A stretch of 64,000 bases of DNA from Bacteroidales bacterium (GCA_041686375.1 JAWLEB010000009.1:12424-76423), one strand, 5' to 3'. Positions 45,514 to 62,172 are shown, counted from the first letter of the stretch. Numbers and translations: made by a program. Notes: a model not told the origin generated them from the sequence alone.

Positions 45514-45975
45514 ATGAAAACAATTGCGAAAATAATAGAAAATTATCCATTTGCCCGGAGGGAAAACTTAATTCCTATACTTCAGGATATACAGGATGAA
45601 TACGGATACCTGACGGAAGATGCTATTAAAGAACTTGGAAAATTCCTTGATGTTCCGACAAGTAAAATATACAGCCTGGCAACATTTTACAGTAAGTTCA
45701 GATTTCATCCGGCAGGGACATATCATTTGAAATTATGCCGCGGCATCTCATGCCATTTAAAGGGTTCTACAAATATTTTGAACGCTATAGAGCAGAAGTT
45801 GGGCATTCAAGATGGTGAATCAACACCTGATGGGCTCTTTAGTCTTGAAGTTGTTGCATGCATGGGGGCATGTGCATTTGGACCTGTTTTGAAAATTAAT
45901 GAGTACTATTATACTGAAATGGATGAAGATCGCCTCGATGAAATTATTGAATATTATAAAGAATACGAAGAGTAA
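45514..45975 (+). CDS. hydC: NuoE-like [2Fe-2S] hydrogenase subunit (locus 2)
   Basis: 153 aa. LCRGISCH...ACMGACAFGP. Confidence 0.85.
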   Translation: MKTIAKIIENYPFARRENLIPILQDIQDEYGYLTEDAIKELGKFLDVPTSKIYSLATFYSKFRFHPAGTYHLKLCRGISCHLKGSTNILNAIEQKLGIQDGESTPDGLFSLEVVACMGACAFGPVLKINEYYYTEMDEDRLDEIIEYYKEYEE

Positions 45976-45981
45976 AAATTT

Positions 45982-47928: not shown

Positions 47929-47939
47929 AAAAGCTGAGA

Positions 47940-49664
47940 ATGTACATTGATATAGAAGTAAATAATAAAACAATTCATGCAAAAAAGGGAGATACCATCT
48001 TAGAGGCATTACGGGAAAACGGCATCTACGTTCCTACCCTTTGTAACTTAAGCGAATTTTCACCGACTGGGGCATGCCGGTTATGTGTTGTTGAGGTTGA
48101 GGGGAAAGAGCGACTTGTTACAGCCTGCAGTTATCCCATTGAGGAGTGGTTAAGAATTAGAACGCATTCTCCACGGGTGATAGAAGCAAGAAGAATGATT
48201 GTGGAACTATTGCTGTCTAATCATCCTGAGGATTGTCTCTATTGTGAAAGAAACAATAAGTGCGAACTGCAGAAACTTGCACAGGAATTGAATTTGCGCG
48301 AAAGACGAATTACCGGAAAGAAAAATAGGGGCAAACTTGACCTTTCCAGTCCCGGTTTGGTGTATGAGCCTGCCAAGTGTGTCCTTTGTGGCCGATGTGT
48401 CAGAGTATGTGAGGGAAAAGAACGCGTATCAACACTTGAATTTACCGGAAAGGGGAATTTTACTTCCATTTCAACTACCATGAAGAAGGATTTGAATTTT
48501 TCCAATTGCTTACATTGTGGACAATGCATACTTGTTTGTCCCACAGGAGCTTTGCAGGAAAAATCCTATTTTGAACCTATACAGGAGGCACTTTCTAAAG
48601 AAAATGTTACTGTGGTTGCCCAATATAGTCCGTCAGTTGCTGTATCTCTTGCTGATGGATTTAATATGCGCTCGGGAAAAGATATGTCTGGGTTAATAAA
48701 TAGTGCATTACGAAAAATAGGATTTGATAAAATTTTTGACAATAGTTTTGGAACTGATGTTTATCTCATTGAAGAGGCTGCAGAATTAGCTAACAGAATG
48801 GATAAAGAAGAAAACTTACCTATGCTGAGCAGCTCTTGTCCTGCCTGGATAAAATACATGGAACAAGCGCATCCTGATCTTTTATCGTTCATTTCCACGG
48901 TTAAATCACCTGAGCAGTTAACCGGATCACTCATAAAGCAATATTGCCTTGATAGTGAAGATAGAGCGAATAATGATATTTTTACAGTTGCTATAGTCCC
49001 GTGTCCGGCTAAAAAATTTGAGGCGCAGCGGGAGGAAATGACAAATAAAGGAATTTCCGATATTGATGCCGTGATGACTACCCACGAATTAGCCAGATTA
49101 ATACAGCTTTATGGAATTGATATTGAGAATATTGATCCGGAAGAATCGGATAAGCCTTTTAATATCAGTAGTTCTTCTGCTAAGTTACCGGCAGCAATAG
49201 GGGGAACTTCCGAAGCGCTTTTAAGAACCATCAATTATAATCTGACGAACAAAGATCTATCTTCGGCTAAAATTTCAAAGCTACGGGGGAGTAAAGAGAT
49301 GAAACAAACAAAATTAATTATAGAAGATAGAACAATAAATGTGATTTCTGTCAGTCCTATTGCCAATATTGAGAAACTAGTGGACGAGATACGAAAAAAT
49401 GACTCAGAGTATCAATATATTGAAGTTATGGCTTGTCCGGGTGGCTGTGTGAATGGAGGCGGACAGCCTGTTCTAAAAAACATTAAGAATCTACGCGACA
49501 GAATTAAAGCCGTGCAGAATATTGATGAGAAAAGTTCTCAGCGTTTTGCACACAGAAATACAGGTGCCTGGCGTTTTATTGAAGAAAAATTTGAAAAACC
49601 TTATAGCGAAACAGCATTAAAAATATTGCATACCCACTATTCAAAAAGGGATGTGTTATTGTGA
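47940..49664 (+). CDS. hydA: [FeFe]-hydrogenase-like large subunit, M3 architecture, with non-canonical H-cluster environment (locus 2)
   Basis: Full N-terminal FeS motifs. L1 is LSSSCPAW (Ser299 codon TCT at 48834-48836), L2 is IVPCPAKKFE (Val353 codon GTC at 48996-48998), and L3 is canonical (EVMACPGGCVNGGGQP). Confidence 0.8.
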   Translation: MYIDIEVNNKTIHAKKGDTILEALRENGIYVPTLCNLSEFSPTGACRLCVVEVEGKERLVTACSYPIEEWLRIRTHSPRVIEARRMIVELLLSNHPEDCLYCERNNKCELQKLAQELNLRERRITGKKNRGKLDLSSPGLVYEPAKCVLCGRCVRVCEGKERVSTLEFTGKGNFTSISTTMKKDLNFSNCLHCGQCILVCPTGALQEKSYFEPIQEALSKENVTVVAQYSPSVAVSLADGFNMRSGKDMSGLINSALRKIGFDKIFDNSFGTDVYLIEEAAELANRMDKEENLPMLSSSCPAWIKYMEQAHPDLLSFISTVKSPEQLTGSLIKQYCLDSEDRANNDIFTVAIVPCPAKKFEAQREEMTNKGISDIDAVMTTHELARLIQLYGIDIENIDPEESDKPFNISSSSAKLPAAIGGTSEALLRTINYNLTNKDLSSAKISKLRGSKEMKQTKLIIEDRTINVISVSPIANIEKLVDEIRKNDSEYQYIEVMACPGGCVNGGGQPVLKNIKNLRDRIKAVQNIDEKSSQRFAHRNTGAWRFIEEKFEKPYSETALKILHTHYSKRDVLL

Positions 49665-51664
49665 TGCAAAAAGATGTGCCAAATACAGAAAGAGAATTGG
49701 TTCATACGATAAAGAATCGTTGTAGAGTGTGTTATACATGTGTGAGGGAATGTCCGGCCAAAGCTATTAAAATCATTAATGGACAGGCTGAGATTCTTAA
49801 TGAAAGATGTATAGCATGTGGAAACTGTATAAAGGTATGCAGCCAGGGTGCAAAAATGTTTATCGATACAACCTCTCACCTGGAAGGAATTTTGAGTAAC
49901 GGGAATAAAAATATTGCCATTCTTGCCCCAAGTTTTCCGGCTGAATTTTCCGATATTCCGAACTACAGAGATTTAGTGTCTATGATTCGTGCCCTGGGTT
50001 TTGATGTTGTCTCTGAAGTAGCTTTTGGAGCTGATTTGGTTGCAATGGAGTACAATAAATTGATACGCAATAACAACAACAAACGGTATATTTCTTCTGA
50101 TTGTCCGGCGATTGTCCAGTACATCGAAAAATATCATCCAGAAATAGTGCCTAACCTTGCTCCTGTAGCTTCTCCTATGATAGCTATGAACCGGGTTATG
50201 AGGGCAAAATATGGAACAAATACCAATGTGGTTTTTATTGGTCCATGTATTGCGAAAAAAGCTGAATGTGACGAGGTTGACGAAATGGTAACCTTTGCTG
50301 AGTTAAGAGAAATTTTTGAACAAAAAGATATCGTTCCCGGGCAACAGGAACCTTCAGATTTTGATCCGCCTAAAAGTGGAAGAGGCGCTATATTTCCTGT
50401 GAGCAGAGGGTTGTTGCAAACAACGGGAATAAAGGATGATGTCTTTGACGGGAATATTATTGTTGCTGAAGGACGCAATGATTTTCAGGAGGCGATTAAG
50501 GAGTTTGAAACCGGACATATTAAATCAAGACACCTTGAGTTGTTATGCTGCGAAGGATGTATTGTTGGGCCCGGAACCACAAAAGGTGGAAGACCCTATG
50601 GACGAAGAATTCTTGTGCATAATTATGTTCAGGAAAAGATAGATAACTTTGATAAAGATGAATGGAAAAAGTATGTTGCAGAATGTAAAGATTTAGATCT
50701 TAGTGTTGGTTTTACGGAAAATGATAAGCGTATCTCATATCCAACAGAGCAAGAGATTGAGAAAGTTCTGAGATCAATGGGTAAAAAAGAAGCTAAAGAT
50801 CATCTCAATTGTGGCGCTTGTGGTTATGATACCTGTGAGGAGCATGCTATTGCTATTGTAAAAGGTTTGGCGGAAAATGAAATGTGTTTGCCTTATACCA
50901 TTGAAAAATTACATAATTCTGTAAATGAACTTGCTGTTTCTAATGAGAAGTTAATGTCTATGCAGCAGGCATTACGTCAGTCTGAAAAAATGGCAAGTAT
51001 GGGGCAATTATCGGCAGGCATAGCTCATGAATTAAATAATCCACTGGGAGTTGTGATTATGTATGCCAACATCCTGCTTGAAGAAGTACCGGAAGATTCA
51101 GAGTTATATAATGACTTGAAGCTTATAGTTGAACAGACCCATCGATGCAAAAAGATTGTGGGAGGACTGTTGAATTTTGCACGTAAAAATCAGGTTTCAA
51201 GAACTGAAGTAGATACTGTGCAACTCATTGAAAATAGCTGTGATGCGGTTATTGTTCCGGATAATGTAAAAATGGTTGTGAAAACAGATAATTTGAATGG
51301 TCGGAAAGCATATCTCGATCAGGAGCAGATGACGCAAATTTTAACCAATTTGATAAAGAATGCTATTGATGCTATGCCTGACGGTGGTAAGCTTACCATT
51401 GAACTGGCAGATGATGAGCATTACACCATTTTCCGGGTACATGACACGGGCAAAGGAATCAAACCCGCGGATAAGGAGAAAATATTCGAACCTTTTTATA
51501 CCACAAAAGGTATAGGGGAGGGAACAGGTCTGGGGTTAGCTACAGCTTATGGGATTGTGAAAATGCATAAAGGAAAAATTACCGTGGATTCAAATGATAA
51601 TAAGGAGAATGGCCCTACAGGTACTACTTTTACAGTAAAGTTACCCAAGTTTCAGGAGAATTAA
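49664..51664 (+). CDS. sensory-type [FeFe]-hydrogenase-like domain fused to a histidine kinase
   Basis: Two ferredoxin motifs and altered H-domain motifs (SSDCPAI, IGPCIAKKAE, LLCCEGCIVGPG). Then CGACGYDTC...C, the HisKA H-box GIAHELNNPLG, and HATPase_c boxes (NLIKNAIDA, DTGKGI, GTGLGL). The ATG overlaps the hydA stop (TGATG). Confidence 0.8.
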   Translation: MQKDVPNTERELVHTIKNRCRVCYTCVRECPAKAIKIINGQAEILNERCIACGNCIKVCSQGAKMFIDTTSHLEGILSNGNKNIAILAPSFPAEFSDIPNYRDLVSMIRALGFDVVSEVAFGADLVAMEYNKLIRNNNNKRYISSDCPAIVQYIEKYHPEIVPNLAPVASPMIAMNRVMRAKYGTNTNVVFIGPCIAKKAECDEVDEMVTFAELREIFEQKDIVPGQQEPSDFDPPKSGRGAIFPVSRGLLQTTGIKDDVFDGNIIVAEGRNDFQEAIKEFETGHIKSRHLELLCCEGCIVGPGTTKGGRPYGRRILVHNYVQEKIDNFDKDEWKKYVAECKDLDLSVGFTENDKRISYPTEQEIEKVLRSMGKKEAKDHLNCGACGYDTCEEHAIAIVKGLAENEMCLPYTIEKLHNSVNELAVSNEKLMSMQQALRQSEKMASMGQLSAGIAHELNNPLGVVIMYANILLEEVPEDSELYNDLKLIVEQTHRCKKIVGGLLNFARKNQVSRTEVDTVQLIENSCDAVIVPDNVKMVVKTDNLNGRKAYLDQEQMTQILTNLIKNAIDAMPDGGKLTIELADDEHYTIFRVHDTGKGIKPADKEKIFEPFYTTKGIGEGTGLGLATAYGIVKMHKGKITVDSNDNKENGPTGTTFTVKLPKFQEN

Positions 51665-51798: not shown

Positions 51799-52191
51799 AT
51801 GACGGAAGAAAAGACGATATTAGTTGTTGATGACGATATTGATTACCTTTTTCAGATGGAGTTAATGCTCAAGAATATGGGGTATAATGTTCTTAAAGCA
51901 GAAAGCCAGAAAGAGGGTGAGCAAATTCTGGAATCGAACCGGCCGGATTTGGCTATTTTTGACTTGATGATGGAGACTGAAGACAGTGGTTTTGTTTTGA
52001 GTTATAAGGCAAAAAAGAAATATCCGGATATGCCTGTAATCATAGCTACTGCTGTGGCTTCTGAGAGAGGTATTTCTTTTGGACTCAACAGTGTAGAAGA
52101 AAAAACATGGATCAAGGCCGATGCATATCTTGAAAAGGGAGTACGAAAAGAACAATTACAAAACGTCATTGAAAAGTTATTGGATAAATGA
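51799..52191 (+). CDS. stand-alone response-regulator receiver protein
   Basis: 130 aa. VVDDD, phospho-acceptor context IFDLMM, and a conserved Lys (LEKG). No output domain. Confidence 0.8.
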   Translation: MTEEKTILVVDDDIDYLFQMELMLKNMGYNVLKAESQKEGEQILESNRPDLAIFDLMMETEDSGFVLSYKAKKKYPDMPVIIATAVASERGISFGLNSVEEKTWIKADAYLEKGVRKEQLQNVIEKLLDK

Positions 52192-53321
52192 AGAAATTAA
52201 AAGTTCTTGTGGTAGATGATGAACCTGGTATTTGTGCGGGTGTAAAGCGTATTTTGAATAAATTCACTGTAAGTTATCCATTTATGGATGAGGATCACGG
52301 GTTTGAAGTTTATGAATCATATACGGGGGAGGAGGCTATTGAATACATTATAAAAGACCCACCGGATATTCTGCTTTTGGATAACAAATTGCCCGGTATT
52401 CAGGGAACAGAAGTGCTTGAATATGTGAATAATAATAATCGTAATATTGTTGTAATGATTATAACTTCTTATGCATCTCTTGAACTGGCTGTAAAGGCAA
52501 CGAATGAGGGAGCGTATGATTTTATACCGAAGCCTTTTACGCCCCAGGAATTGAAATCTTCTATGGAAAATGTTACCAAACATCTTTTCCTTCGTTCAAT
52601 GACGCAAAAATTGAATAAAGAAGGCAAGGAAGTGAGGTTTCAGTTTCTCTCGGTTCTCTCTCATGAGTTAAAATCTCCCCTGAATGCCCTGGAGGGTTAT
52701 CTGAATATTATGAAGGAAAGGCAGGCAGGAGAAGAAATTTCTAATTACGATCAGGTTATTGATCGCTCCTTGCAAAGGATGAAAGGAATGCGTAACTTAA
52801 TTATGGATTTACTGGATCTTACCAAAATAGAATTTGAAAAGAAGGAGGATAAGTTTGAATCGGTTAATCTTAACCAGCTTGCTCAAAGCGCTGTAGAGTC
52901 TATGAAACCCTACGCTATACAGAAAGATGTTACAGTGGAAATCCATGGGGGAGATAACATATACCTGGATGCAGACCCCGGAGATATTGAAATTGTAATG
53001 AATAATCTGGTATCCAATGCCGTGAAGTATAATAAGGAACGTGGAAAAGTTGATGTTCACATCAAACAAAAAGATAACGATATAATTGAGATTCGGGTGG
53101 ATGATACAGGTATTGGAATGAATAAGGAAGAAATTCAAAAATTATTCAATGAATTTTACAGGGCAAAAAATGAGAAAACCCGCCAAATTACGGGAAGTGG
53201 ATTAGGATTGCCTATAGTTAAAAAGGTAGTTGATTTATACCATGGAGAAATAAAAGTTAACTCTAAACCGGATATGGGAAGTACATTTATTGTTTATTTG
53301 CCAGCAAAGTCTAATATGTAA
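52188..53321 (+). CDS. hybrid receiver / histidine kinase (REC-HisKA-HATPase_c)
   Basis: N-terminal REC (VVDDEP..LLLDNKLPG..PKPF), H-box LSHELKSPLN, and boxes NLVSNAVKYN, DDTGIGM, GSGLGLPIV. Its ATG overlaps the upstream TGA by 4 nt (ATGA). Confidence 0.8.
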   Translation: MKKLKVLVVDDEPGICAGVKRILNKFTVSYPFMDEDHGFEVYESYTGEEAIEYIIKDPPDILLLDNKLPGIQGTEVLEYVNNNNRNIVVMIITSYASLELAVKATNEGAYDFIPKPFTPQELKSSMENVTKHLFLRSMTQKLNKEGKEVRFQFLSVLSHELKSPLNALEGYLNIMKERQAGEEISNYDQVIDRSLQRMKGMRNLIMDLLDLTKIEFEKKEDKFESVNLNQLAQSAVESMKPYAIQKDVTVEIHGGDNIYLDADPGDIEIVMNNLVSNAVKYNKERGKVDVHIKQKDNDIIEIRVDDTGIGMNKEEIQKLFNEFYRAKNEKTRQITGSGLGLPIVKKVVDLYHGEIKVNSKPDMGSTFIVYLPAKSNM

Positions 53322-53371
53322 ATAATTTAATATATTGCCCTGTCAAATCTGTATATTTAAAATTGAATATT

Positions 53372-54022
53372 ATGAAAACACTTCCGGAAAAGACAATAGA
53401 AAGACTGAGTGTCTACAGAAGAAGCTTATTGAATTGCTATTCCGATGGTAAAGAATATATCTATTCGCATGAGCTTGCAAATTTGCATAATATAACTTCA
53501 GTGCAGGTTAGGAGAGATTTAATGTTGATAGGCTATTCTTCAACACTAAAAAAAGGATATGATGTGAAAGCCTTGATTGATCTTATAGGTCAGATTCTGG
53601 ATTCACCAAATGGGTTGAATGTTGCTGTGGTAGGTGTAGGAAACTTAGGACGTGCGATTACTACTTATTTTAGAGGCAAAAGATCAAAACTGCAAATTGT
53701 AGCTTCGTTTGACACGGATCCGGAGAAAATCAATAGTGTGATTTCAGGTGTAAAATGTTACTCCATGAAAGAGCTGGAAACAATCATCAGGGAAAAAAAT
53801 ATTTCGGTTGCAATTTTAACTGTGCCTCCTGAATATGCCAATAGTGTTGCAGAACTGCTTGCGCAAAGTGGGATAAAAGGTTTATTAAATTATACTTCTG
53901 TCCCTGTTAAGGTTTCGACTGACATTGTTTTGGATGATTATGATATGACAATGTCTCTGGAGAAAGTTGCATATTTTGTAAAACAAAAGGCTGATGAAGA
54001 GAGTTTGAATGAGTTGAAATAA
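53372..54022 (+). CDS. rex: redox-sensing transcriptional repressor Rex
   Basis: N-terminal winged helix (IERLSVYRR.L) and a Rossmann motif VAVVGVGNLGRA. About 215 aa. The ORF is open from TTG 53363. Confidence 0.85.
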   Translation: MKTLPEKTIERLSVYRRSLLNCYSDGKEYIYSHELANLHNITSVQVRRDLMLIGYSSTLKKGYDVKALIDLIGQILDSPNGLNVAVVGVGNLGRAITTYFRGKRSKLQIVASFDTDPEKINSVISGVKCYSMKELETIIREKNISVAILTVPPEYANSVAELLAQSGIKGLLNYTSVPVKVSTDIVLDDYDMTMSLEKVAYFVKQKADEESLNELK

Positions 54023-55317: not shown

Positions 55318-55893
55318 TTGAAAAAATATCCTGACCTTAAAATCATACAAGGCATCCGCCAACAGGACTCCAGAGTACTTCAATATTTGTATGATGAATA
55401 TTTCACCATGATACGGTCGATGGTTATTGAAAATTATGGGAATGAGGATGATGCAGAGGATGTTTTTCAGGAATCAATAATTTTGATATACAGAAAAATT
55501 ACAAATGAATCATTTGAGTTGACTTCTACGTTTAAAACCTATATGTTTGCTGTTTGCTGGAATATGTGGAAGAAGGAGTTGAGGTATAGATCTCGGCATA
55601 AGAATATAAAGGAAGGGTACCAATATCTTGCACAGAACCCGGAAAATCTGAATGTAGAATATGAATTGCACAGAAGATATAAACTTTACCAGGAGCATTT
55701 TAAAAAATTGGGTAAGGATTGCCAGAAAATATTAAAAATGGTATTGAAAGGAGACTCTTATCAAAAAATTGCAAAAAAAATGAGACTTAAAAGTGCTCAA
55801 TACGTAAAAAAGAGAAAATATATCTGTAAGGAGGAATTAATTGAAGCAATAAGAAACGATAAAAGATATAATGATTTTTATGAATCAGACTGA
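55318..55893 (+). CDS. ECF-type sigma-70 family factor
   Basis: 191 aa. Region 2 (DAEDVFQESIILIYRKI) and a region 4 HTH (DSYQKIAKKMRLKSAQYVKKRKY). TTG start. It overlaps the next ORF by 23 nt. Confidence 0.7.
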   Translation: MKKYPDLKIIQGIRQQDSRVLQYLYDEYFTMIRSMVIENYGNEDDAEDVFQESIILIYRKITNESFELTSTFKTYMFAVCWNMWKKELRYRSRHKNIKEGYQYLAQNPENLNVEYELHRRYKLYQEHFKKLGKDCQKILKMVLKGDSYQKIAKKMRLKSAQYVKKRKYICKEELIEAIRNDKRYNDFYESD

Positions 55894-56644
55894 TAATTTA
55901 ATATTCAGATATCTGGATAATGAAATGAATGAAAAGGAGCGCAGACGTTTTGAACAACGCCTTGAAAAAGAACCGGCACTCCGAAAGGAAGTGGAATTTC
56001 AGCTCGGCGTAAGAAATGCCCTTATCGAAGAGGATATAGTAGAGCTAAGGGATAAACTACAAGGGATTACTTCTGGAAGATCTTCACCTTCGCAACATAA
56101 AGATAAGCGTAAAATTTATTTATCTGTTGCTGCAATTATTATAGCCCTCATATCAGTGGGTTCATGGTTTTATTTTATGGTTGTTTCACAGGAACCTGCT
56201 GAATTATATCAAAAGTACTATACCCCGTATGAAAATGTTTATTCTGTCAGGTCGGCAGAGGAGGAACGTGAGGATAATGCTTTACTGGAAAAAGCTTTTA
56301 CTGCATATGATGAAGAGAGCTGGCAGGAAGCGGATCGTTATTTCAAATTATTTTTAGAGAACAATAGTAACCATGCCGCAGCGAATTTCTATGGTGGGAT
56401 TGTGAAACTTGAACGGGGTAACCATATGGAAGCAATGGAACTTTTGCAAAGAGTTGTCGACGAAAATAATAACCTATTTACAGAACAGTCTTATTGGTAT
56501 TTAGCGCTGACGTCCCTGCGTATTGGAGATACAGAAGAAGCTAAGTCTCATTTAACAAGGATTGTTGATAATGAAATGTTCCACAGTACAGATGCCCGTG
56601 AAATTCTAAAATCGTTGCGTTATCGTAGCATTTTGGATAAGTAA
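55871..56644 (+). CDS. anti-sigma-like single-pass membrane protein with an extracytoplasmic TPR domain
   Basis: About 85 aa cytoplasmic N-terminus, one TM helix (IYLSVAAIIIALISVGSWFYFMVV), and a TPR-like C-terminus (NNNLFTEQSYWYLAL...). Confidence 0.6.
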   Translation: MIFMNQTDNLIFRYLDNEMNEKERRRFEQRLEKEPALRKEVEFQLGVRNALIEEDIVELRDKLQGITSGRSSPSQHKDKRKIYLSVAAIIIALISVGSWFYFMVVSQEPAELYQKYYTPYENVYSVRSAEEEREDNALLEKAFTAYDEESWQEADRYFKLFLENNSNHAAANFYGGIVKLERGNHMEAMELLQRVVDENNNLFTEQSYWYLALTSLRIGDTEEAKSHLTRIVDNEMFHSTDAREILKSLRYRSILDK

Positions 56645-56677
56645 TTCGCTTCATAATTTTTTCTGATTTTTACGGAC

Positions 56678-56822
56678 TGAAACCCTCATCCACTACCGTG
56701 GACAAAAGTCTGTGTATGAAGCATAAGGGTTCCATGGGATGCAGAGTGAACTTACGTTGACTTTTGTAGCAATAAGTCTCATAGTATGAAACTAATAACC
56801 TGACTTTATTTAAATGAAAAAT
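56678..56822 (+). repeat. 145-nt repeat, copy 1 (candidate structured RNA)
   Basis: Gap-free match to 61660-61804, about 84 percent identity by hand count. It overlaps the last 5 codons and the stop codon (17 nt) of the CHAT gene on the opposite strand. Confidence 0.75.
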
Positions 56823-59619
56823 ACCTCTTTTTTCGGTTCATGTAATACCTTCTTCCTATCAAACCGGCCACAACTATTATCAATATACCCCCTATAAGGT
56901 AGTCCCGGTTTTTATTATAGATAGCTTCTTTATCACCGATAAGAATGTAACCAGACCAAAAATAGGGGTGTGCATGAAGCATGTCTGCATTATTTAAAAA
57001 TTTTATTTTTGCTTCTCTTAACGCTTCTTCCTTACTTTTTCCCTTGATAATTTCTTCATAGAAATATTCCATTAATTGAATACTTGCATTATCTTCCACA
57101 GGCCAGAGAGTCATGACAATAGAGGGGCATCCGGCATATTTGAATCCACGTGCCAGACTCATTACTCCTTCACCGCGACTTAACTTGCCTATACCCGTAT
57201 TGCATGAGCTTAAAATAGTCATACGACTGCTTAAATTCAGATTATAGATTTCGTAAGTATTCAGAAATCCATCCTCTTCCTGCTCATTAGTTTGGGTAAA
57301 TGCCATTTTAGAAAACATAGGATCATCATCACTGACAATTGTATGCATTGCCAGATGAAGCATATCATATTTGGATGAATGCTTTTTGAAATTCTTTTCG
57401 GTGGCATCCTCATCGATGAATTTATCTCCATTAATGATTTGGGTGATTTTTGAAACTTCTTTTTTAATCCCTTTTAGCGGGTACAGGCGCTCCCTGTATT
57501 TTTGGCGTGTGGCTATTTTTACTTCATCCGGATTTTCAAGATTTTCATAGGAAGGAGCAAAACCTGCAAACCTTTTTTTAGACTTTTTTTTAACAACAGG
57601 TTCTGTGAACAGGACTTTTGCAGAGTAGTCATAACTGATATTATAATCATGGATTAAGTATCGCAGTGAACTGTAATCAGGCAGGTCTGATAATACAGGT
57701 TTGGTTACAAGAATTTCAAAGGGTATATAGGCAAGCTGGTCATCCGGAATGATTATCAGTTTTTTATTTTGTGGCAGGTTGAGTGGTTTGATGAGTTTTG
57801 AATAAATGTAATGGGCGGTTTGTGCAAAATCCTTCATATCTTCTTTTCCATGATTTGCAAAATTTCTTTTTGAGATTGAATTCTTTAAATTGTTGATTTC
57901 CTGAGGTAAGGAATCATTAATAGGTGTTAAATGCATACGAAGATCATTTTTTTCCAGCATAAAAGTATATAGTTTTTCCTCAAATATGGCATACTCTACA
58001 ATGATATCCTCATTGCTCATTTTCTCTTGTATAACTTCCGGTTTTATGGCTTTTAGATTGTATTTTAACTCATAAAAATCAGGATAATCCTTTTCAAATG
58101 TTTGCATTAATGTTTCGTATGATCTATTTAGTTGAAATAGTTGATCTTCCAATTGTTGTATTTTATCTGAATTGGGGGTTTCATCCTGGTTTGCTTCAAA
58201 AATGAGCTCTTCAACATTGTGAATGCGTTTTTTTATTAGGTTTTCTTTTTGTTTTAAACTATCGGGTATGTTTCCAATTGTTAAAGCTTGGTTAGATTGT
58301 ATAGATTCATACAATACAGTAGCTTTACTTCCTTCTGCATATGCAAATGCTTTGTCCAGATATTTTTTGTTCTGCGTATTTTGATATAACTGAATAGCTA
58401 TCTCCATGGCCTCCATATAAGTATCCCTTTCTTCGGCAGTGAGAAGAAGTTTACTATCGTCATTTATATAACCTTTCCTTATTTCCCGTGTAGTTCTTAT
58501 AGCAAGATCATAAGTTTTTAGAGCTTCTTCATAGTACCTTGGATTTTTTTCTCCCCATTCTTCTAATTTTCTCGCTTTTCTTTTAGAAAGCTCCAACAAT
58601 TCATTCTTTGAAAATACATTCTCTGCTCTTGGATTAGCAAACAGGGAGGTATCATTGAACTCTTCCGATATTGCTATTAAACCCTTTTGATAACTCTCTA
58701 AAGCTTTTCTTAATTCTCCCTGTTGATAATACAGGTCTCCCAGGTTGGAAAAAACTTTCGAAGTCTCCGGATGATTATCCCCTAAAGATGAGTGGTATAT
58801 TTTTAAAGAATTGTTAAATAACTCCTTTGCTTCAGTAAAAGATTTTTGTTTCAATTTTAATACTCCATAATTCATGTAAATTTTGGCCAGATTGTAATTA
58901 TTTTCCCCGTAGCTTTTTTTTGCCTCAGGTATTATTTCTTTATAGTATTGTTCAGCAATCTTATTGCTATCTGATTTATGGTATGCATTAGCGATGTTGA
59001 CCATAGTATTTAAAATTCCCTCTGAGTCAGACTTATCTTTTATTTTAAGACTGATTTTATAATTATCAACGGCTTTCTGATACGAGCCCAGATTATTGTA
59101 TAATGCTCCGAGATTGTTATAGATCCATGATAACTGCTCAAGATTTTCTAAGGAGTCTTTTTTTAATAAACTAATAGCTTTATGATAATATAATTCTGCT
59201 TTTTCTTTATCTTTTTGTAAAGAAAAAATATTAGCCATGTTCAAATAATTCGACCCTAATTTCCTGTTGCTTATAGTATCCTGCTTCTCATATATTCTTT
59301 CTGCTTTCAGATAATATTCCATGGATTTATCATAATAGCCTTGTTTTTTGTAAATTACCCCAATATTAACATAGGTGTCCGCTATTGTCTTGTGATTATC
59401 ATCCTGGAGTTTTTCTTTTTTGTATTTTAAGATATCCATGAATATATCCCGGGACTGTTGAAATTTTTCACGTGCTGCCATCTCTAAAGCCCTTTTTTTC
59501 AATGAGTCCAGTGAATTAAACTGGTTATCAGTTGAAGTTGTGGTTAAGTTACAATAGGATTTTATTGAAAATAGCAATATAGTGGTAATTAAGGTTATTT
59601 TTCGGAGTTTTTGAGACAT
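56806..59619 (-). CDS. TPR-repeat CHAT-domain (caspase-fold) protease, predicted extracytoplasmic with a C-terminal membrane anchor
   Basis: 937 aa. N-terminal signal-like segment, many TPRs, a CHAT dyad context (LHLAMHT and ILSSCNTG), and a C-terminal TM helix (LIGGILIIVVAGLIG). Confidence 0.8.
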   Translation of the reverse strand: MSQKLRKITLITTILLFSIKSYCNLTTTSTDNQFNSLDSLKKRALEMAAREKFQQSRDIFMDILKYKKEKLQDDNHKTIADTYVNIGVIYKKQGYYDKSMEYYLKAERIYEKQDTISNRKLGSNYLNMANIFSLQKDKEKAELYYHKAISLLKKDSLENLEQLSWIYNNLGALYNNLGSYQKAVDNYKISLKIKDKSDSEGILNTMVNIANAYHKSDSNKIAEQYYKEIIPEAKKSYGENNYNLAKIYMNYGVLKLKQKSFTEAKELFNNSLKIYHSSLGDNHPETSKVFSNLGDLYYQQGELRKALESYQKGLIAISEEFNDTSLFANPRAENVFSKNELLELSKRKARKLEEWGEKNPRYYEEALKTYDLAIRTTREIRKGYINDDSKLLLTAEERDTYMEAMEIAIQLYQNTQNKKYLDKAFAYAEGSKATVLYESIQSNQALTIGNIPDSLKQKENLIKKRIHNVEELIFEANQDETPNSDKIQQLEDQLFQLNRSYETLMQTFEKDYPDFYELKYNLKAIKPEVIQEKMSNEDIIVEYAIFEEKLYTFMLEKNDLRMHLTPINDSLPQEINNLKNSISKRNFANHGKEDMKDFAQTAHYIYSKLIKPLNLPQNKKLIIIPDDQLAYIPFEILVTKPVLSDLPDYSSLRYLIHDYNISYDYSAKVLFTEPVVKKKSKKRFAGFAPSYENLENPDEVKIATRQKYRERLYPLKGIKKEVSKITQIINGDKFIDEDATEKNFKKHSSKYDMLHLAMHTIVSDDDPMFSKMAFTQTNEQEEDGFLNTYEIYNLNLSSRMTILSSCNTGIGKLSRGEGVMSLARGFKYAGCPSIVMTLWPVEDNASIQLMEYFYEEIIKGKSKEEALREAKIKFLNNADMLHAHPYFWSGYILIGDKEAIYNKNRDYLIGGILIIVVAGLIGRRYYMNRKKRYFSFK

Positions 59620-59811
59620 CCTGTATTGTTTATAATAATATTATGAACAAAAATAAAAAAAAGTTGGTAAAAATTTAAATTTTTTTATTCTGTATATCAG
59701 TTGATTATAAGATTTCTTTGAAAAAATTTTAAAAATCTGGGTTACCTTTTGATGGTTGAGGGAATAAAGGGGTGAAGGCCTTCATAATTGTTAAACTAAA
59801 ATTTGAATACC

Positions 59812-60027
59812 ATGAAAACTAAAAATTTTATTACCCCGGAACAAAACCCTGAGACTTTTTTTACAAGCAATTTAGAAAGCAGTGTACTTTGTCAGAATCA
59901 AATGTTTGCCATAAGAGGTGGCAATGAAGACGCATCGGACGAGGACGAGGACGAGGAAGAGGAAGAGGATACAAGCGATCAAGACAATGGGCGAACTTCT
60001 GATATTCAGGAGGATGCTTTTGTTTAG
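59812..60027 (+). CDS. small precursor-like peptide: double-glycine leader plus a highly acidic tail
   Basis: MKTKNF...LCQNQMFAIRGG / NEDASDEDEDEEEEEDTSDQDNGRTSDIQEDAFV. 18 of the last 34 residues are D or E. The ORF is open from TTG 59803. Confidence 0.5.
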   Translation: MKTKNFITPEQNPETFFTSNLESSVLCQNQMFAIRGGNEDASDEDEDEEEEEDTSDQDNGRTSDIQEDAFV

Positions 60028-60087
60028 CACTTCCAGCTGCAGTCAGAAGAACTAAAGTTAAATTTTCTAAACGCTAATATTAATAGT

Positions 60088-60855
60088 ATGATTAATATCT
60101 ATGAAGACATAGAACGTTATATTGAGGGTGATTTACAAGGACATGCCCTGGCTGATATGGAAACGGCTATTGAAGAAAATGTCAACTTAAAACAGGAGTA
60201 TTTTTTCAGAAAAGAAGTTGATTCAGCCATTCAAGAAGAAAATGTTATGAATTTAAGGAGTCAGCTTCAGCAAATTTCCACGTCACAGAGTCCTAAGTCC
60301 ACAGCAACAGGAAGAGAAAAAAGAATTCAGAGAAGAAAATCTTACGTTGCTGCTGCCTCATTGACTTTATTATTAGGAATTGGTGGTATTGGCTATTTTC
60401 ACATGAATTCACCAAAAAATCCTGAAGAAGTTTTTGAAGAACATTATGAACCCTATCAAGCTACCATATCTTTCCGGTCTGGAAATGAGGAGATAAATTC
60501 ATTGTTAGTTAGGGCTTATCAGTATTACCAGGAAGAAAAATATACAACAGCCCTGACGTTATTTGATCAAATTCTGGAGCAGGAGCAAGATATGGGTGTA
60601 TTGTTATACTCCGGAATCTCTTTGATGGAGATAGACAGATACTATGAAGCTGAGCAATCATTTGCAATGGTTGTTAAAAATGATAACAATCTTTTTATAG
60701 AACAAGCCAAATGGTATTTGGCGATGTGTTATATTAAGACGAATGAAAAAACAGAAGCCGAAAAACTGCTTGCGGACCTGGCACAGAATAGTCAGTTTTA
60801 TGATGAACAGGCAGAAAAAGTTATGCGTGATCTGGCTAAACTAGAGGAGGATTGA
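60088..60855 (+). CDS. anti-sigma-like single-pass TPR membrane protein (paralogue of 55871..56644)
   Basis: Same architecture and a shared motif block (NDNNLFIEQAKWYLAM compared with ENNNLFTEQSYWYLAL). TM helix YVAAASLTLLLGIGGIGYF. Confidence 0.6.
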   Translation: MINIYEDIERYIEGDLQGHALADMETAIEENVNLKQEYFFRKEVDSAIQEENVMNLRSQLQQISTSQSPKSTATGREKRIQRRKSYVAAASLTLLLGIGGIGYFHMNSPKNPEEVFEEHYEPYQATISFRSGNEEINSLLVRAYQYYQEEKYTTALTLFDQILEQEQDMGVLLYSGISLMEIDRYYEAEQSFAMVVKNDNNLFIEQAKWYLAMCYIKTNEKTEAEKLLADLAQNSQFYDEQAEKVMRDLAKLEED

Positions 60856-60862
60856 TTAACTC

Positions 60863-60906
60863 AATAACCCGGATATTGTACCTCATGAAATAATATCCGG
60901 GTTATT
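60863..60906 (+). terminator. perfect 15-bp hairpin after the second anti-sigma-like gene
   Basis: AATAACCCGGATATT (60863-60877) pairs with AATATCCGGGTTATT (60892-60906) around a 14-nt loop. There is no clear U tract, so this may be a processing or attenuation site rather than a terminator. Confidence 0.4.
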
Positions 60907-60920
60907 AAAAACTTACTATC

Positions 60921-61646
60921 ATGTTAAAAACAGAAAAAAGGTTTTTGATAACACAACCGAATACAGTCTCAGAAAAAAAATTCTTGTCTTATGTTTCCCA
61001 TAGAATAAGAACTCCATTGAATTCAGTAATTGGATTTTCAAAGTTGCTTCTCAATAAAGATTGCTCTGATGAAAAAGTTGAAGATTTCGCAGATAAAATT
61101 TTAAGTAGTGGGTATGAAATATTGCATTACTTTCAAAATATTATGGATCTTTCCGAAATGGAGACAGATATTGTCAATGTAAATCCTGTGAAACTTGATG
61201 CTAAAGATCTTATCCTGAGACTTGTTAGGGAGTATCGGGATCGATTTCAACCAGAACATAATATTGAAATTAAATGTACAGATATCAGAAATTTCAGGAG
61301 TATACCGATTCAATCTGATGATTATATTTTCAGTCGTATACTTGGAAATATAATTGAACTAACCAGAATGATGATTCATGAAGGAGAGATAATCCTTAGC
61401 TGTATTATTAGCCATGATGGATATATACATTTTAGGGTTACTGGAAAATTTAATTCAGTACTTCATGCGGCGGATGAATCACTTATACTGCAAAAAGGAG
61501 AGGATAATGACAGTATAGAGTATTTGACCTATAAGGTAATACGTAATTTTTCAGAATTGCTGGGAGGCACTTTTTCTGCGGCGATAATCGCAGATAATGA
61601 GATTCTTTTCAATTTCATACTTCCTTACCATAGCGCCATAGAGTGA
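60921..61646 (+). CDS. soluble HisKA-domain protein with a degenerate ATPase domain (pseudo-kinase or phosphotransfer protein)
   Basis: The H-box SHRIRTPLNSVIGFSKLL is present. It has no TM or sensor domain. The C-terminal half lacks recognisable DxGxG and GxGLG boxes. Confidence 0.55.
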   Translation: MLKTEKRFLITQPNTVSEKKFLSYVSHRIRTPLNSVIGFSKLLLNKDCSDEKVEDFADKILSSGYEILHYFQNIMDLSEMETDIVNVNPVKLDAKDLILRLVREYRDRFQPEHNIEIKCTDIRNFRSIPIQSDDYIFSRILGNIIELTRMMIHEGEIILSCIISHDGYIHFRVTGKFNSVLHAADESLILQKGEDNDSIEYLTYKVIRNFSELLGGTFSAAIIADNEILFNFILPYHSAIE

Positions 61647-61659
61647 AATGTTATTCAAA

Positions 61660-61804
61660 TGAAACCCTCATCCACTAACTTAGACAAATGCCTGTGCATA
61701 AACCATGAGGGTTCCATGGGATGCAGAATCAACTTACGTTGACTTTAGTAGCACTGGGTCTCAGAGTAAGAAACTAATAACCTAACTTGGTTCAAATGAA
61801 AAAT
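61660..61804 (+). repeat. 145-nt repeat, copy 2 (candidate structured RNA)
   Basis: See 56678-56822. It ends 8 nt upstream of the LytTR gene ATG. Confidence 0.75.
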
Positions 61805-61812
61805 TAAATAAT

Positions 61813-62172
61813 ATGGATAGTAAAACCAATAACAAAACGCAAGATACCATCATAATTTCTTCTCAATATGGACGTAAAGAGATTGGTAAGCAAAAAATTA
61901 TTTATTGCAGAAGTTTTTCAGTAGGGACTTTAGTGTACCTTAAGGATGGCTCTCATCTATTGCTTAAGGAGAGTATTCATGTGCTCAAATCTTATTTACA
62001 AGAGTCTGAGTTTTTTCTTGTTGATGAATATCATTTAATTAATATCAGATATATCGATGCTATCTTTTCGAATAGGATCTTGCTTGTGAATGGGGGTAAA
62101 TGCAATATTGAAGCGAAAAGAAGAAAGGAATTGTTTACCCGGATTGAACATTTTTATGCGATGCAATATTAA
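61813..62172 (+). CDS. stand-alone LytTR-like DNA-binding domain protein (no receiver domain)
   Basis: 119 aa. IIYCRSFSVGTLVYLKDGSHLLLKESIHVLKSYL..FFLVDEYHLINIRYIDAI follows the LytTR pattern (I.yi.....y..i......l....sl..le..L....F.r.hrs.iVN...I..i). Confidence 0.5.
   Translation: MDSKTNNKTQDTIIISSQYGRKEIGKQKIIYCRSFSVGTLVYLKDGSHLLLKESIHVLKSYLQESEFFLVDEYHLINIRYIDAIFSNRILLVNGGKCNIEAKRRKELFTRIEHFYAMQY

Follow-up and report, generated by a model that had tools for sequence, protein, structure and literature searches.

TPR-CHAT proteins have been tied to ECF sigma factors in two described systems. DdvA of Myxococcus (PMC11506125) is a natural fusion of an N-terminal anti-sigma domain, a single transmembrane (TM) helix and a periplasmic TPR-CHAT of the separase/craspase type with a His/Cys dyad; its CHAT domain is proposed to cut DdvA itself as the site-1 step ahead of intramembrane proteolysis, and DdvA controls a defence island. 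DdvA-like fusions were reported only in Myxococcota and one Comamonas species. In the type III-E CRISPR Craspase, Cas7-11 works with the TPR-CHAT protein Csx29, which cleaves Csx30, an inhibitor of an ECF sigma factor (PMC10028731). In the DegS-RseA-RseP-sigmaE envelope-stress pathway of E. coli (summarised in PMC10028731), the membrane-anchored periplasmic protease is a serine protease with a PDZ domain, activated by the C-termini of misfolded outer-membrane proteins. The Gram-positive double-glycine peptide pheromone systems (ComCDE, BlpCHR, plantaricin) instead combine a GG-leader peptide, a C39-peptidase ABC exporter, a polytopic membrane kinase and a regulator with receiver and LytTR domains, with positive feedback on the peptide gene and frequent linkage to bacteriocin clusters, whereas the LytTR regulatory systems HdrRM and BrsRM of Streptococcus mutans (PMC6193735) pair a receiver-less LytTR regulator with a membrane protein and are linked to bacteriocin control.

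Seven adjacent genes of an uncultured Bacteroidales genome, analysed within a 64-kb stretch of DNA (hereafter, the window), form one conserved module that may be a peptide cell-to-cell signalling system in Bacteroidota; no published description of it was found. As in DdvA, an ECF sigma factor, a single-pass anti-sigma-like protein and a TPR-CHAT are brought together, but here the TPR-CHAT (937 aa) and the anti-sigma-like proteins (255-257 aa, with only a small TPR ectodomain) are encoded by separate genes on opposite strands and the TPR-CHAT has its own C-terminal membrane anchor, so any cleavage would act between proteins. The module may work like DdvA, but it is not a member of the DdvA type: its anti-sigma-like domain lacks zinc ligands, and it is associated with a GG-leader peptide, an exporter, a kinase or pseudokinase and a LytTR protein, which are not reported for DdvA. 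Craspase is cytoplasmic and RNA-activated and needs Cas7-11, while this locus has no CRISPR genes and its protease is predicted to be periplasmic and membrane-anchored. The DegS pathway shares a membrane-anchored periplasmic protease with a (here putative) peptide-binding regulatory domain, a single-pass anti-sigma factor as the proposed substrate and an ECF sigma factor as output, but it lacks a dedicated signal gene with its own exporter and feedback promoter.

Gene content of the locus

The features of the locus are the following:
55318-55893 (+): divergent ECF-type sigma factor, 191 aa
55871-56644 (+): tprA, single-pass anti-sigma-like TPR protein, the sigma-coupled, fast-evolving paralogue
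56806-59619 (-): TPR-CHAT caspase-fold protease, 937 aa, predicted to face the periplasm
59740-59768 (+): bipartite ECF-type promoter motif, GGTTACCTTTT-N10-GGAATAAA, 43 nt upstream of the peptide ATG
59812-60027 (+): double-glycine-leader peptide precursor, 71 aa
60088-60855 (+): tprB, single-pass anti-sigma-like TPR protein
60921-61646 (+): soluble HisKA pseudokinase
61813-62172 (+): stand-alone LytTR DNA-binding protein, 119 aa

The first-pass annotation had described these seven genes as parts of two signalling paradigms joined together, and this observation is confirmed: all seven ORFs are present, and every domain call passes its curated cut-off, save the match to an anti-sigma domain. 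The sigma factor matches TIGR02937 (ECF sigma) over residues 21-174 with 49.3 bits (cut-off 42.9) and Pfam Sigma70_r2 with 25.4 bits (cut-off 24), but has no NCBIfam equivalog; orthologues of 27-72% identity accompany the cassette in every locus examined. The downstream tprA overlaps the sigma gene by 23 nt, consistent with a co-transcribed cognate anti-sigma factor, and codes for an anti-sigma-domain-like N-terminus, one TM helix and about 150 aa of periplasmic TPR (TPR_6, 31.9 bits). Its full-length paralogue tprB (29% identity, E 1e-33) matches TPR_19 with 33 bits. A single hydrophobic segment at about residues 80-100 is present in both paralogues and in 94 relatives, and the structural model shows a helix at 75-97 preceded by three N-terminal helices. 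The anti-sigma assignment itself is sub-threshold: zf-HC2 matches tprA with E 0.002-0.007, the copies of the window stay below cut-off (18.8 bits against 22.2) and lack Zn ligands, and a profile search of the PDB found no anti-sigma structure, although 6 of 12 N-terminal domains of the family hit zf-HC2 (best E 1.1e-5) and 1 hits RseA_N.

The TPR-CHAT protein matches CHAT (PF12770) with 200 bits (E 7e-59) and TPR_12 with 124 bits, and consists of an N-terminal signal or anchor, a TPR array, a helical scaffold, the CHAT domain and a C-terminal TM helix with a basic tail. H755, H759 and C806 are invariant in 39 homologues of 25-68% identity. The hydrophobic N-terminal segment and the C-terminal TM helix with its basic tail recur in nearly all of the 45 closest homologues and, together with the AlphaFold2 model (mean pLDDT 87.5, pTM 0.84), predict that the CHAT domain faces the periplasm, a topology that rests on hydropathy heuristics and the model rather than on SignalP or DeepTMHMM. 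Foldseek matches the model to DdvA (E 7e-15), the closest solved structure, then to Csx29 (E 3e-14, target-normalised TM-score 0.56) and to separases, with E-values between 1e-15 and 1e-12, in compliance with a separase/craspase-type fold.

The HisKA protein (HisKA, 53.5 bits) has no TM segment, only about 18 residues before the H-box and no HATPase_c hit. The H-box reads SHRIRTPL, in which the phospho-acceptor His of the dimerisation (DHp) domain is kept but the acidic residue after it is replaced by Arg, and the ATP-binding N, G1 and G2 boxes are absent. The LytTR protein scores 25.1 bits against a cut-off of 22.6 and has no receiver domain.

Conservation and architectures of the module

The arrangement is not due to chance, since the same order and orientation recur in dozens of loci with different flanking genes, including cassettes at 69%, 55%, 48% and 42% CHAT identity, one of which has entirely different flanking genes. 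A survey seeded on the TPR membrane protein, without reference to CHAT, gave 13 loci with at least 4 kb on both sides, of which 12 carry CHAT, 12 the sigma factor, 12 a GG-leader peptide and 11 the HisKA protein; the one locus lacking CHAT also lacks a peptide. Conservation of the neighbourhood, a CHAT domain outside the cytoplasm and HisKA and LytTR matches above threshold had been set beforehand as conditions for the hypothesis, and all three hold, the second as a prediction.

The conserved core is made of four genes, coding for the ECF sigma factor, a single anti-sigma-like TPR protein, the TPR-CHAT protease and the divergently transcribed peptide, and one locus contains only these four. 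The accessory genes come in two forms, either a soluble kinase, predicted to be active, or a pseudokinase plus a receiver-less LytTR regulator, the latter being the form of the window: the ATP-binding boxes are absent from about 30 LytTR-linked orthologues, while about 30 LytTR-less modules carry a canonical kinase, for which no receiver-domain partner was found. Relatives carry one to three LytTR copies, and in one locus LytTR is fused to the pseudokinase in a single ORF.

Clustering of the TPR proteins places sigma-adjacent and kinase-adjacent single copies in the same group, that is, they are the same orthologue. tprB, which the first-pass annotation had regarded as a second copy, is the ancestral anti-sigma-like protein, the orthologue of the sole anti-sigma-like protein in single-copy modules, whereas the sigma-adjacent tprA is the fast-evolving duplicate, as such copies cluster as divergent singletons in the window-type architecture. 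An invariant P-Y-x5-8-R-S-[GA] segment lies about 26 residues after the TM helix of tprB, in a low-confidence coil between the TM region and the first TPR helix of the model, and an R-S-[GA] motif is found 23-28 residues from the membrane in 76 of 94 proteins, in a predicted flexible coil, which makes it a candidate cleavage site.

The peptide, its export and the shared promoter

The real start of the peptide gene is the ATG at 59812, giving a 37-aa leader that ends in IRGG (GG at residues 36-37) and a 34-aa strongly acidic tail. In the window, positions -4, -7 and -12 are I, M and L; across 43 unique homologues, which lie divergent from the CHAT gene, -4 is I/V in 41, -7 is L/M in 43 and -12 is L/V in 42, although -4 and -7 were partly imposed by the search pattern and only -12 is independent. 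Every tail has a net negative charge, while the mature peptides vary greatly in sequence. As a control for false positives, a peptide with all features occurs in 38 of 46 windows at the 5' side of CHAT genes against 2 of 325 random windows.

No C39 peptidase or HlyD homologue occurs anywhere in the 64-kb window, and its closest relatives have no exporter nearby. In other relatives, however, a C39-peptidase ABC exporter with an HlyD-like partner sits in or next to the operon (6 of the 13 well-flanked loci), and 11 of 11 module-linked exporters keep the catalytic Cys, His and Asp. Therefore, the argument of the first-pass annotation that CHAT, as the only protease candidate, may process the peptide holds only for this window, and the exporter is the likely leader peptidase. 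The basic residue before GG, on which that proposal also drew, is common but not universal (37 of 43) and also occurs in an unrelated lanthipeptide precursor. Various RiPP (ribosomally made, modified peptide) gene clusters often follow the module as well: LanBC, radical-SAM/SPASM and YcaO genes, plus a weak, sub-threshold ATP-grasp hit, lie after the LytTR genes in different loci.

A bipartite promoter motif (GGGTYACCTTTT, 10-12 nt, GGAATAAA) precedes the first peptide gene in nearly all loci and, in 13 loci, also the sigma gene, which points to sigma-driven positive feedback. The strict motif gives 20 hits in 1.7 Mb, where about 1 is expected, and 18 of them lie upstream of peptide or sigma genes; the occurrence in front of the peptide operon of the window is its only site within 2 mismatches, against 0.07 expected from shuffles. 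The window has no GGGTYACC...GGAATAAA motif upstream of 55318, so autoregulation of the sigma gene is supported only in other architectures. This sigma-type promoter wires together the two halves of the locus. It has the -35/-10 look of an ECF promoter and is not a LytTR direct repeat; the 9-bp direct repeats spaced by about 12 bp that precede the -35 element in LytTR regulatory systems were looked for by eye only, which revealed A/T tracts upstream of the -35-like element, also in LytTR-less modules, and no LytTR-class-specific repeat.

The likening of the second half to ComC/D/E, Blp and Agr systems is thus corrected. The C39-peptidase ABC exporter (in relatives), the GG-leader, the LytTR-family output, the inferred feedback on the peptide gene and the linkage to bacteriocin or RiPP clusters are shared with the double-glycine pheromone systems, but the locus is not a member of the ComCDE/Blp/Agr family, as it has no polytopic membrane kinase and no receiver domain on the LytTR protein, and both the soluble pseudokinase and the regulator are accessory genes. 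With respect to HdrRM and BrsRM, a receiver-less LytTR protein and a membrane protein (tprB) likewise lie in the same predicted operon, but tprB is unrelated to HdrM or BrsM, the gene order differs and a pseudokinase lies between them.

A proposed mechanism

The interpretation offered by the first-pass annotation is partly supported: the seven genes form one module, and its proposal of CHAT as the site-1 protease of the anti-sigma factor is plausible and gains in DdvA a precedent that had not been cited, yet the peptide-processing argument, the pheromone-triad analogy and the reading of tprB required correction. The favoured explanation, to which a probability of roughly 0.45 is assigned, is a self-contained Bacteroidota signalling module built on an ECF sigma/anti-sigma pair, with a self-produced secreted peptide as its probable input. 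In this view, a C39-peptidase ABC exporter, which must lie elsewhere in this genome, would cleave the leader and export the peptide, and the anionic mature form of about 20-34 aa would accumulate outside the cytoplasm, where it would be sensed by the TPR domains of either the TPR-CHAT protease or the anti-sigma-like proteins. The activated CHAT protease would then cut the anti-sigma factor in its juxtamembrane P-Y...R-S-[GA] segment, allowing intramembrane proteolysis and release of the sigma factor, which would transcribe the peptide operon from the GGGTYACC...GGAATAAA promoter and close a positive-feedback loop of the kind seen in quorum sensing. In the version of the window, the duplicated anti-sigma paralogue, the pseudokinase and the LytTR protein would form a second transcriptional output, a branch that in relatives lies next to RiPP or bacteriocin gene clusters.

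The analysis establishes the gene content, the conservation of the neighbourhood and of the catalytic residues, the topology signals, the promoter shared by the sigma and peptide genes, and the association with exporters and RiPP clusters; in contrast, the signalling role of the peptide, the binding partners, the proteolytic activity of CHAT and the anti-sigma factor as its substrate are inferred, the last without an experiment or a complex prediction linking the two proteins. In fact, the tightest genomic pairing is between CHAT and the peptide, as one related locus has a second, TPR-less CHAT with its own GG peptide and no anti-sigma gene of its own, which fits a protease-substrate relation just as well.

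If the whole chain were true, which is possible but less likely than not, it would be the first peptide-autoinducer (quorum-sensing-type) system described in Bacteroidota and a new way of activating an ECF sigma factor, in which a self-made, exported anionic peptide activates a separate, membrane-anchored periplasmic caspase-fold protease that makes the site-1 cut in a TPR anti-sigma factor, with a logic resembling DegS but with a dedicated signal gene and positive feedback, and in many lineages with control of RiPP or bacteriocin production.

Alternative explanations

The rival that survives best, although unlikely, is that CHAT acts on the peptide and not on the anti-sigma factor, either maturing the exported pro-peptide in the periplasm, as extracellular proteases mature Phr peptides in Bacillus, or degrading it as a quorum-quenching or reset step, while the TPR ectodomain of the anti-sigma factor senses the peptide directly. 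The always divergent CHAT-peptide gene pair, the second CHAT-peptide pair described above and the joint absence of CHAT and peptide from one well-flanked locus are consistent with this reading, and the long (up to 34 aa), variable, low-complexity tails make trimming plausible. However, the DdvA fusion links TPR-CHAT directly to an anti-sigma factor, and trimming or degradation of the already exported peptide does not explain the invariant, exposed basic motif that the anti-sigma proteins carry at a fixed distance from the membrane.

Less likely still, the module could mainly regulate and produce an antimicrobial or RiPP product, the acidic peptide being a bacteriocin-like product or a carrier or immunity factor and the TPR membrane proteins providing immunity or sensing of envelope damage. 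RiPP genes and peptidase-containing exporters are adjacent in many loci, and LytTR regulators classically control bacteriocin genes (PMC6193735). Conversely, the CHAT-linked peptides are anionic (median net charge -4, none positive), mostly lack Cys and have no dedicated modifying enzyme in the core, unlike known bacteriocins; the RiPP clusters carry their own, different precursor and are absent from the clade of the window and from the minimal core, and the promoter logic points to autoinduction.

An envelope-stress or anti-phage sensor of the DdvA-DdvS type, in which CHAT senses a foreign or misfolded periplasmic protein and the small ORF is a minor regulated target, is improbable. The structural similarity to DdvA and the resemblance to the DegS-RseA logic speak for it, but none of the seven proteins hits a PADLOC defence model beyond generic TPR or helix-turn-helix similarity, no defence genes lie nearby, and the peptide gene is a near-universal core component with export machinery, which suggests a self-made rather than a foreign input. 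Lastly, the chance juxtaposition of an ECF pair and a decayed peptide/kinase/LytTR remnant, suggested by the catalytically dead kinase and the receiver-less LytTR protein, is contradicted by order and orientation conserved from 69% down to 31% CHAT identity across different flanking genes, by pseudokinase features conserved in about 30 orthologues, by the pseudokinase-LytTR fusion and by the shared promoter motif.

Implications and distribution

Bacterial CHAT proteases are abundant, yet a function is known for only two, Craspase and DdvA, the role of DdvA being still a proposal, and this module offers a widespread and genetically compact setting in which to find a substrate and an activating ligand for a periplasmic one. 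Peptide-based cell-to-cell signalling is not known to have been characterised in Bacteroidota, and here the candidate signal gene, exporter, sensors, transcription factor and target promoter are all named, so that the question is directly testable. The link to varied RiPP clusters suggests a regulatory handle for switching on silent biosynthetic clusters. The TPR anti-sigma-like family is large, with 2,520 cluster representatives (clusters at 50% identity) at E <= 1e-10, and public records label its members 'hypothetical', 'TPR repeat protein' or 'tol-pal YbgF family protein', so that many genomes would need re-annotation.

Gene content of the locus

The seven ORFs described by the first-pass annotation are all present in the window and their domain assignments hold, so that the observation itself stands, whereas the interpretation that accompanied it is only partly supported, as detailed below. 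The coding sequences are the following:

55318-55893, sigma factor that passes both Sigma70_r2 and the ECF superfamily model TIGR02937
55871-56644, TPR membrane protein, anti-sigma-like
56806-59619 (minus strand), 937-aa protein with a very strong CHAT match (200 bits) behind an array of TPR repeats
59812 (ATG), start of the small ORF coding for the double-glycine (GG) leader peptide, as previously annotated
60088-60855, second TPR membrane protein, anti-sigma-like
60921-61646, 241-aa protein with HisKA but no HATPase_c hit
61813-62172, 119-aa protein that passes LytTR, with no receiver domain

The two TPR membrane proteins are full-length paralogues (29% identity, E 1e-33). No C39 peptidase, ABC exporter or HlyD homologue occurs anywhere in the 64-kb window, and none of the module proteins gave a defence-system match with PADLOC. 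The closest public relative is a metagenome-assembled Bacteroidales genome.

Conservation of the neighbourhood

A scan of reference genomes with the CHAT protein returned a single 5.4-kb contig, hence the neighbourhood analysis relied on metagenome contigs (loci designated L, followed by a number). CHAT homologues at 69%, 55%, 48% and 42% identity all sit in the same cassette, in the same order and orientation, namely sigma, TPR protein, CHAT on the opposite strand, small ORF, TPR protein, HisKA, and LytTR. Three of these loci share flanking genes with the window, while the fourth (L006, on a 3.5-Mb contig) has entirely different flanks, indicating that the cassette is conserved as a unit.

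To avoid circularity, the search was then seeded on the TPR protein by means of a 7-sequence alignment; 80 metagenomic loci were retrieved and annotated with profiles built from the cassette proteins. Among the 13 loci with at least 4 kb on both sides of the TPR gene, 12 carry CHAT, 12 the sigma factor, 12 a GG peptide, 11 the HisKA protein, 6 a C39-ABC exporter, 5 an HlyD-like protein, and 3 LytTR, and all 55 loci of at least 3 kb have at least one module gene beside the TPR gene. L083 (9403-10717) is the one well-flanked locus in which the sigma factor and the TPR anti-sigma-like protein occur as a pair without CHAT or a GG peptide within 10 kb, and it could serve as a natural comparison case.

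Three architectures recur. Class 1, to which the window belongs, has two TPR paralogues, a short HisKA protein and one to three LytTR genes; class 2 has sigma, CHAT, peptide, TPR, a long kinase, exporter, and HlyD; class 3 has sigma, TPR, CHAT, one to four tandem peptides, and a long kinase. One locus at 31% CHAT identity (L094) has only sigma, a long TPR anti-sigma-like protein, CHAT, and the peptide, which defines a four-gene core. A distant variant is present in the cultivable Adhaeribacter radiodurans (CP055153). Conversely, a more distant CHAT homologue from Aquimarina (29% identity) has no sigma, TPR or peptide neighbours, and the association is therefore specific to the membrane-anchored subfamily.

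Some loci carry a second CHAT gene (L009 99-2861, L016 15713-18730, L053 6162-9182, and L066 5281-8166); in L009 it codes for 831 aa with no detectable TPR repeats and has its own divergent GG-leader peptide, without an anti-sigma gene of its own. Moreover, many loci of the window's architecture (L006 14444-15429, L016, L023, L024, L030, and L091 4350-5337) have a second, canonical ECF sigma factor (Sigma70_r2 plus r4_2, 189 aa) with a gene of about 139 aa, just upstream of the module's own sigma gene and preceded by a classic TGTAACC-N16-CGTC type motif. This second sigma factor is absent from the window.

The peptide precursor and its likely exporter

Small ORFs divergent from the CHAT gene were found wherever that region is on the contig. 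The 43 unique sequences have I or V at position -4 in 41 cases, L or M at -7 in all 43, L or V at -12 in 42 (a position that was not part of the search pattern), and K or R at -3 in 37. The tail after GG is 12-34 residues long and always has a net negative charge, with 23% Asp, 13% Pro and 11% Glu, Cys in only four sequences, and a D[LFY]WPP motif in many. A control shows that the detector is specific, since a peptide with all features occurs in 38 of 46 windows on the 5' side of CHAT genes against 2 of 325 random windows. In the window, the tail of the peptide (59923-60024, plus strand) contains a run of GAC/GAG/GAA codons (DEDEDEEEEED) that is longer than in its closest relatives, suggesting expansion or contraction of a low-complexity acidic tract.

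All 11 module-linked exporters retain the C39 catalytic Cys, His and Asp, and the peptide is therefore best read as a genuine double-glycine-leader substrate of a peptidase-containing exporter, which, in the window's clade, must be encoded elsewhere. This undercuts the argument of the first-pass annotation that CHAT, as the only protease candidate in the locus, may be the processing enzyme. Specifically, cleavage by CHAT after the Arg that precedes GG was considered and set aside, because the -3 residue is T or I in 6 of 43 peptides, a K at -3 also occurs in an unrelated lanthipeptide precursor, and intact C39 exporters are present in relatives.

A putative promoter shared by the peptide and sigma genes

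A bipartite motif, GGGT[TC]AC[CT]TTTT followed after 10-12 nt by GGAATAAA (often extended to GGAATAAAGGGGT), which can be written in short as GGGTYACCTTTT-N10-12-GGAATAAA, lies upstream of the first peptide gene in nearly all loci of all three classes. In the window it is located at 59740-59768, 43 nt before the ATG, and it is the only such site in 64 kb, against 0.07 expected from shuffles. The same motif lies 10-20 nt before the start codon of the sigma gene in 12 loci of class 3 and related form, and also in L094. A strict version gives 20 hits in 1.7 Mb where about one is expected, and 18 of them lie upstream of a peptide or sigma gene.

This element is most likely the cognate promoter of the sigma factor, in that it has the spacing of a -35/-10 pair, it is unlike the Bacteroidota housekeeping promoter, and it is shared by the sigma gene and the peptide operon. 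If so, the sigma factor would drive the synthesis of the peptide, the anti-sigma factor, the kinase and, where present, the exporter, resulting in a positive-feedback circuit. In the window's own architecture, however, the sigma gene lacks the motif, so that here only the peptide operon would be under this control. A scan for sigma-70 promoters and terminators gave no more hits than in shuffled sequence, as expected for Bacteroidota.

A second conserved element, CTGTAWATCAG-N4-TTATAAG, lies about 35 nt upstream of the -35-like box in the CHAT-peptide intergenic region (59690-59712, plus strand, in the window, and the equivalent position in L001-L004, L009, L012, L023, L029, and L053). It could be the CHAT promoter on the other strand or a regulator binding site, and it is not restricted to LytTR-containing loci. 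Direct repeats compatible with LytTR binding were looked for by eye upstream of the -35 element, where only A/T tracts were seen, and these are also present in LytTR-less modules.

The TPR-CHAT protein

H755, H759, and C806 are invariant in 39 homologues down to 25% identity. Nearly all of the 45 closest homologues have a hydrophobic N-terminal segment and a C-terminal TM helix followed by Arg/Lys, which, by the positive-inside rule, puts the TPR and CHAT domains outside the cytoplasm. The AlphaFold2 model is confident (mean pLDDT 87.5, pTM 0.84) and shows a TPR array (37-316), a helical scaffold (338-533), a small beta unit, the CHAT domain (592-895), and a terminal helix.

A sequence search of the PDB with the CHAT protein returned only TPR proteins. 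In contrast, Foldseek ranks the Myxococcus anti-sigma factor DdvA first (E 7e-15), followed by the Craspase subunit Csx29 and then the separases. DdvA is a single protein made of an anti-sigma domain, a TM helix, and a periplasmic TPR-CHAT, proposed to cut its own linker as a site-1 step; it is in effect a natural fusion of two of the proteins encoded separately here, which argues that they work together. The Craspase precedent, in which a TPR-CHAT cleaves an inhibitor of an ECF sigma factor, points the same way.

The anti-sigma-like proteins

Both paralogues begin with IxxYLxGELxxxExxxFExxL, the helix pattern of anti-sigma domains, without the zinc ligands. Six of 12 N-terminal domains hit the zf-HC2 anti-sigma family (best E 1e-5), although the window's copies are sub-threshold, and a profile search of the PDB with the N-terminal domain returned nothing significant, so that the support for this assignment is moderate. 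In modules with a single TPR protein, the copies next to sigma and the copies next to the kinase fall in one cluster and are therefore the same orthologue; the 60088 gene of the window belongs with them, whereas the sigma-adjacent 55871 gene belongs to a set of fast-evolving duplicates.

A segment P-[YQ]-x5-8-R-S-[GA] occurs in 76 of 94 proteins, with the Arg 23-28 residues beyond the TM helix. In the model (mean pLDDT 70.8) this segment is a low-confidence coil between the TM region and the first TPR helix, and it is, by inference alone, a reasonable candidate for a cleavage or recognition site.

The family is large, with 2,520 cluster representatives (clusters at 50% identity) at E <= 1e-10, and public records call its members hypothetical, TPR repeat or YbgF-family proteins. 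A subfamily of about 500 aa, found among these hits and in L074 (9404-10939), L081 (4041-5600), and L094 (11049-12545), carries three or four tandem cytoplasmic copies of the anti-sigma-domain-like motif (IxxYLxxEL...LRxxL) before the TM helix, which may allow one protein to hold several sigma molecules.

The kinase and LytTR proteins

The alignment of all module kinases against a canonical kinase shows a clean split. In about 30 loci with an adjacent LytTR gene, including the window, the H-box reads SH[RG]IRTPL, the N, G1, and G2 boxes are absent, and the length is 237-270 aa, with about 18 residues before the H-box in the window's protein. Conversely, in about 30 loci without LytTR, the H-box reads SHE[IL]RTPM, the N, G1, and G2 boxes are intact, and the length is 280-309 aa, with an N-terminal coiled coil of about 50 aa. 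Neither group has a TM segment. The protein that the first-pass annotation called a crippled HisKA is therefore a conserved pseudokinase and not a product of decay. No receiver-domain partner was found for the active kinases.

In one contig (L027 863-2017, plus strand) the pseudokinase (residues 21-262) and a LytTR domain (residues 270-382) are encoded in frame as one 385-aa ORF, a possible natural fusion that supports a physical partnership between them, although this is a single instance and could be an assembly error. Receiver-less LytTR regulators held in check by membrane proteins are known in streptococci, and the duplicated TPR protein could, by analogy alone, play that role here.

Biosynthetic clusters downstream of the module

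Immediately downstream of the LytTR genes, different loci carry different RiPP machinery. L091 (12954-20747) has a lanthipeptide precursor, Cys/Thr-rich and with a GG leader, together with LanB, LanC, and a C39-ABC exporter; L053 (11472-13961) has LanB and LanC; L029 (5381-11945) has a radical-SAM/SPASM enzyme, a CPBP protease, and a C39-ABC exporter; L032 (5822-11807) has YcaO; and L036 (4712-9169) has an ATP-grasp-like protein (a weak, sub-threshold hit) and a SPASM-domain protein. VKOR-family and MG2 (alpha-2-macroglobulin-like) genes are also present. A constant cassette next to variable biosynthetic clusters suggests that the cassette regulates them, whereas the window's clade has Omp85, an amidohydrolase, and FTCD downstream instead.

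Comparison with known systems and interpretation

The module resembles DdvA-DdvS, with the parts split between proteins, the DegS-RseA pathway, for the proposed peptide-activated site-1 protease, and the Gram-positive GG-pheromone systems. It fails, however, defining criteria for membership in each, in that it is not a single polypeptide like DdvA, it has no Cas7-11 gene, unlike Craspase, and it has no membrane kinase and no receiver-LytTR regulator, unlike ComCDE-type systems. A review links the ECF54 group to CHAT genes, but this is an actinobacterial group without an anti-sigma factor and thus is not this system. Full-text literature searches found no description of the module, although most subscription journals lay outside the searched collection and a prior description cannot be ruled out. 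The module is regarded as a proposed case of ECF signalling by regulated proteolysis, a known principle, in which the input would be new and so would the protease, which would act as a separate protein.

The analysis shows the genes and their domains, the conservation of the module and of its architectures, the GG-leader features and the anionic tails, the intact exporters in relatives, the promoter motif common to the sigma and peptide genes, the invariant catalytic dyad and the predicted fold, the topology signals, the split between pseudokinase and active kinase, and the adjacency of the RiPP clusters. In contrast, it is by inference that the motif is read by this sigma factor, that the peptide is a signal, and that CHAT cleaves the anti-sigma factor, the main alternative being that CHAT matures or degrades the peptide; the roles of the second TPR paralogue, the pseudokinase, and the LytTR protein are likewise inferred.

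A putative redox-sensing locus in the same window

At 49661-51664 (plus strand), with neighbours at 45514-49664, 51799-53321, and 53363-54022, a 667-aa protein fuses an [FeFe]-hydrogenase H-cluster domain (Fe_hyd_lg_C, 156 bits) to HisKA and HATPase_c. It lies directly after a three-subunit HydABC-type hydrogenase, which is probably electron-bifurcating, and is followed by a stand-alone receiver, a receiver-kinase hybrid, and a Rex redox repressor. The whole looks like a hydrogen- or redox-sensing phosphorelay, and the arrangement is conserved in L002-L004.
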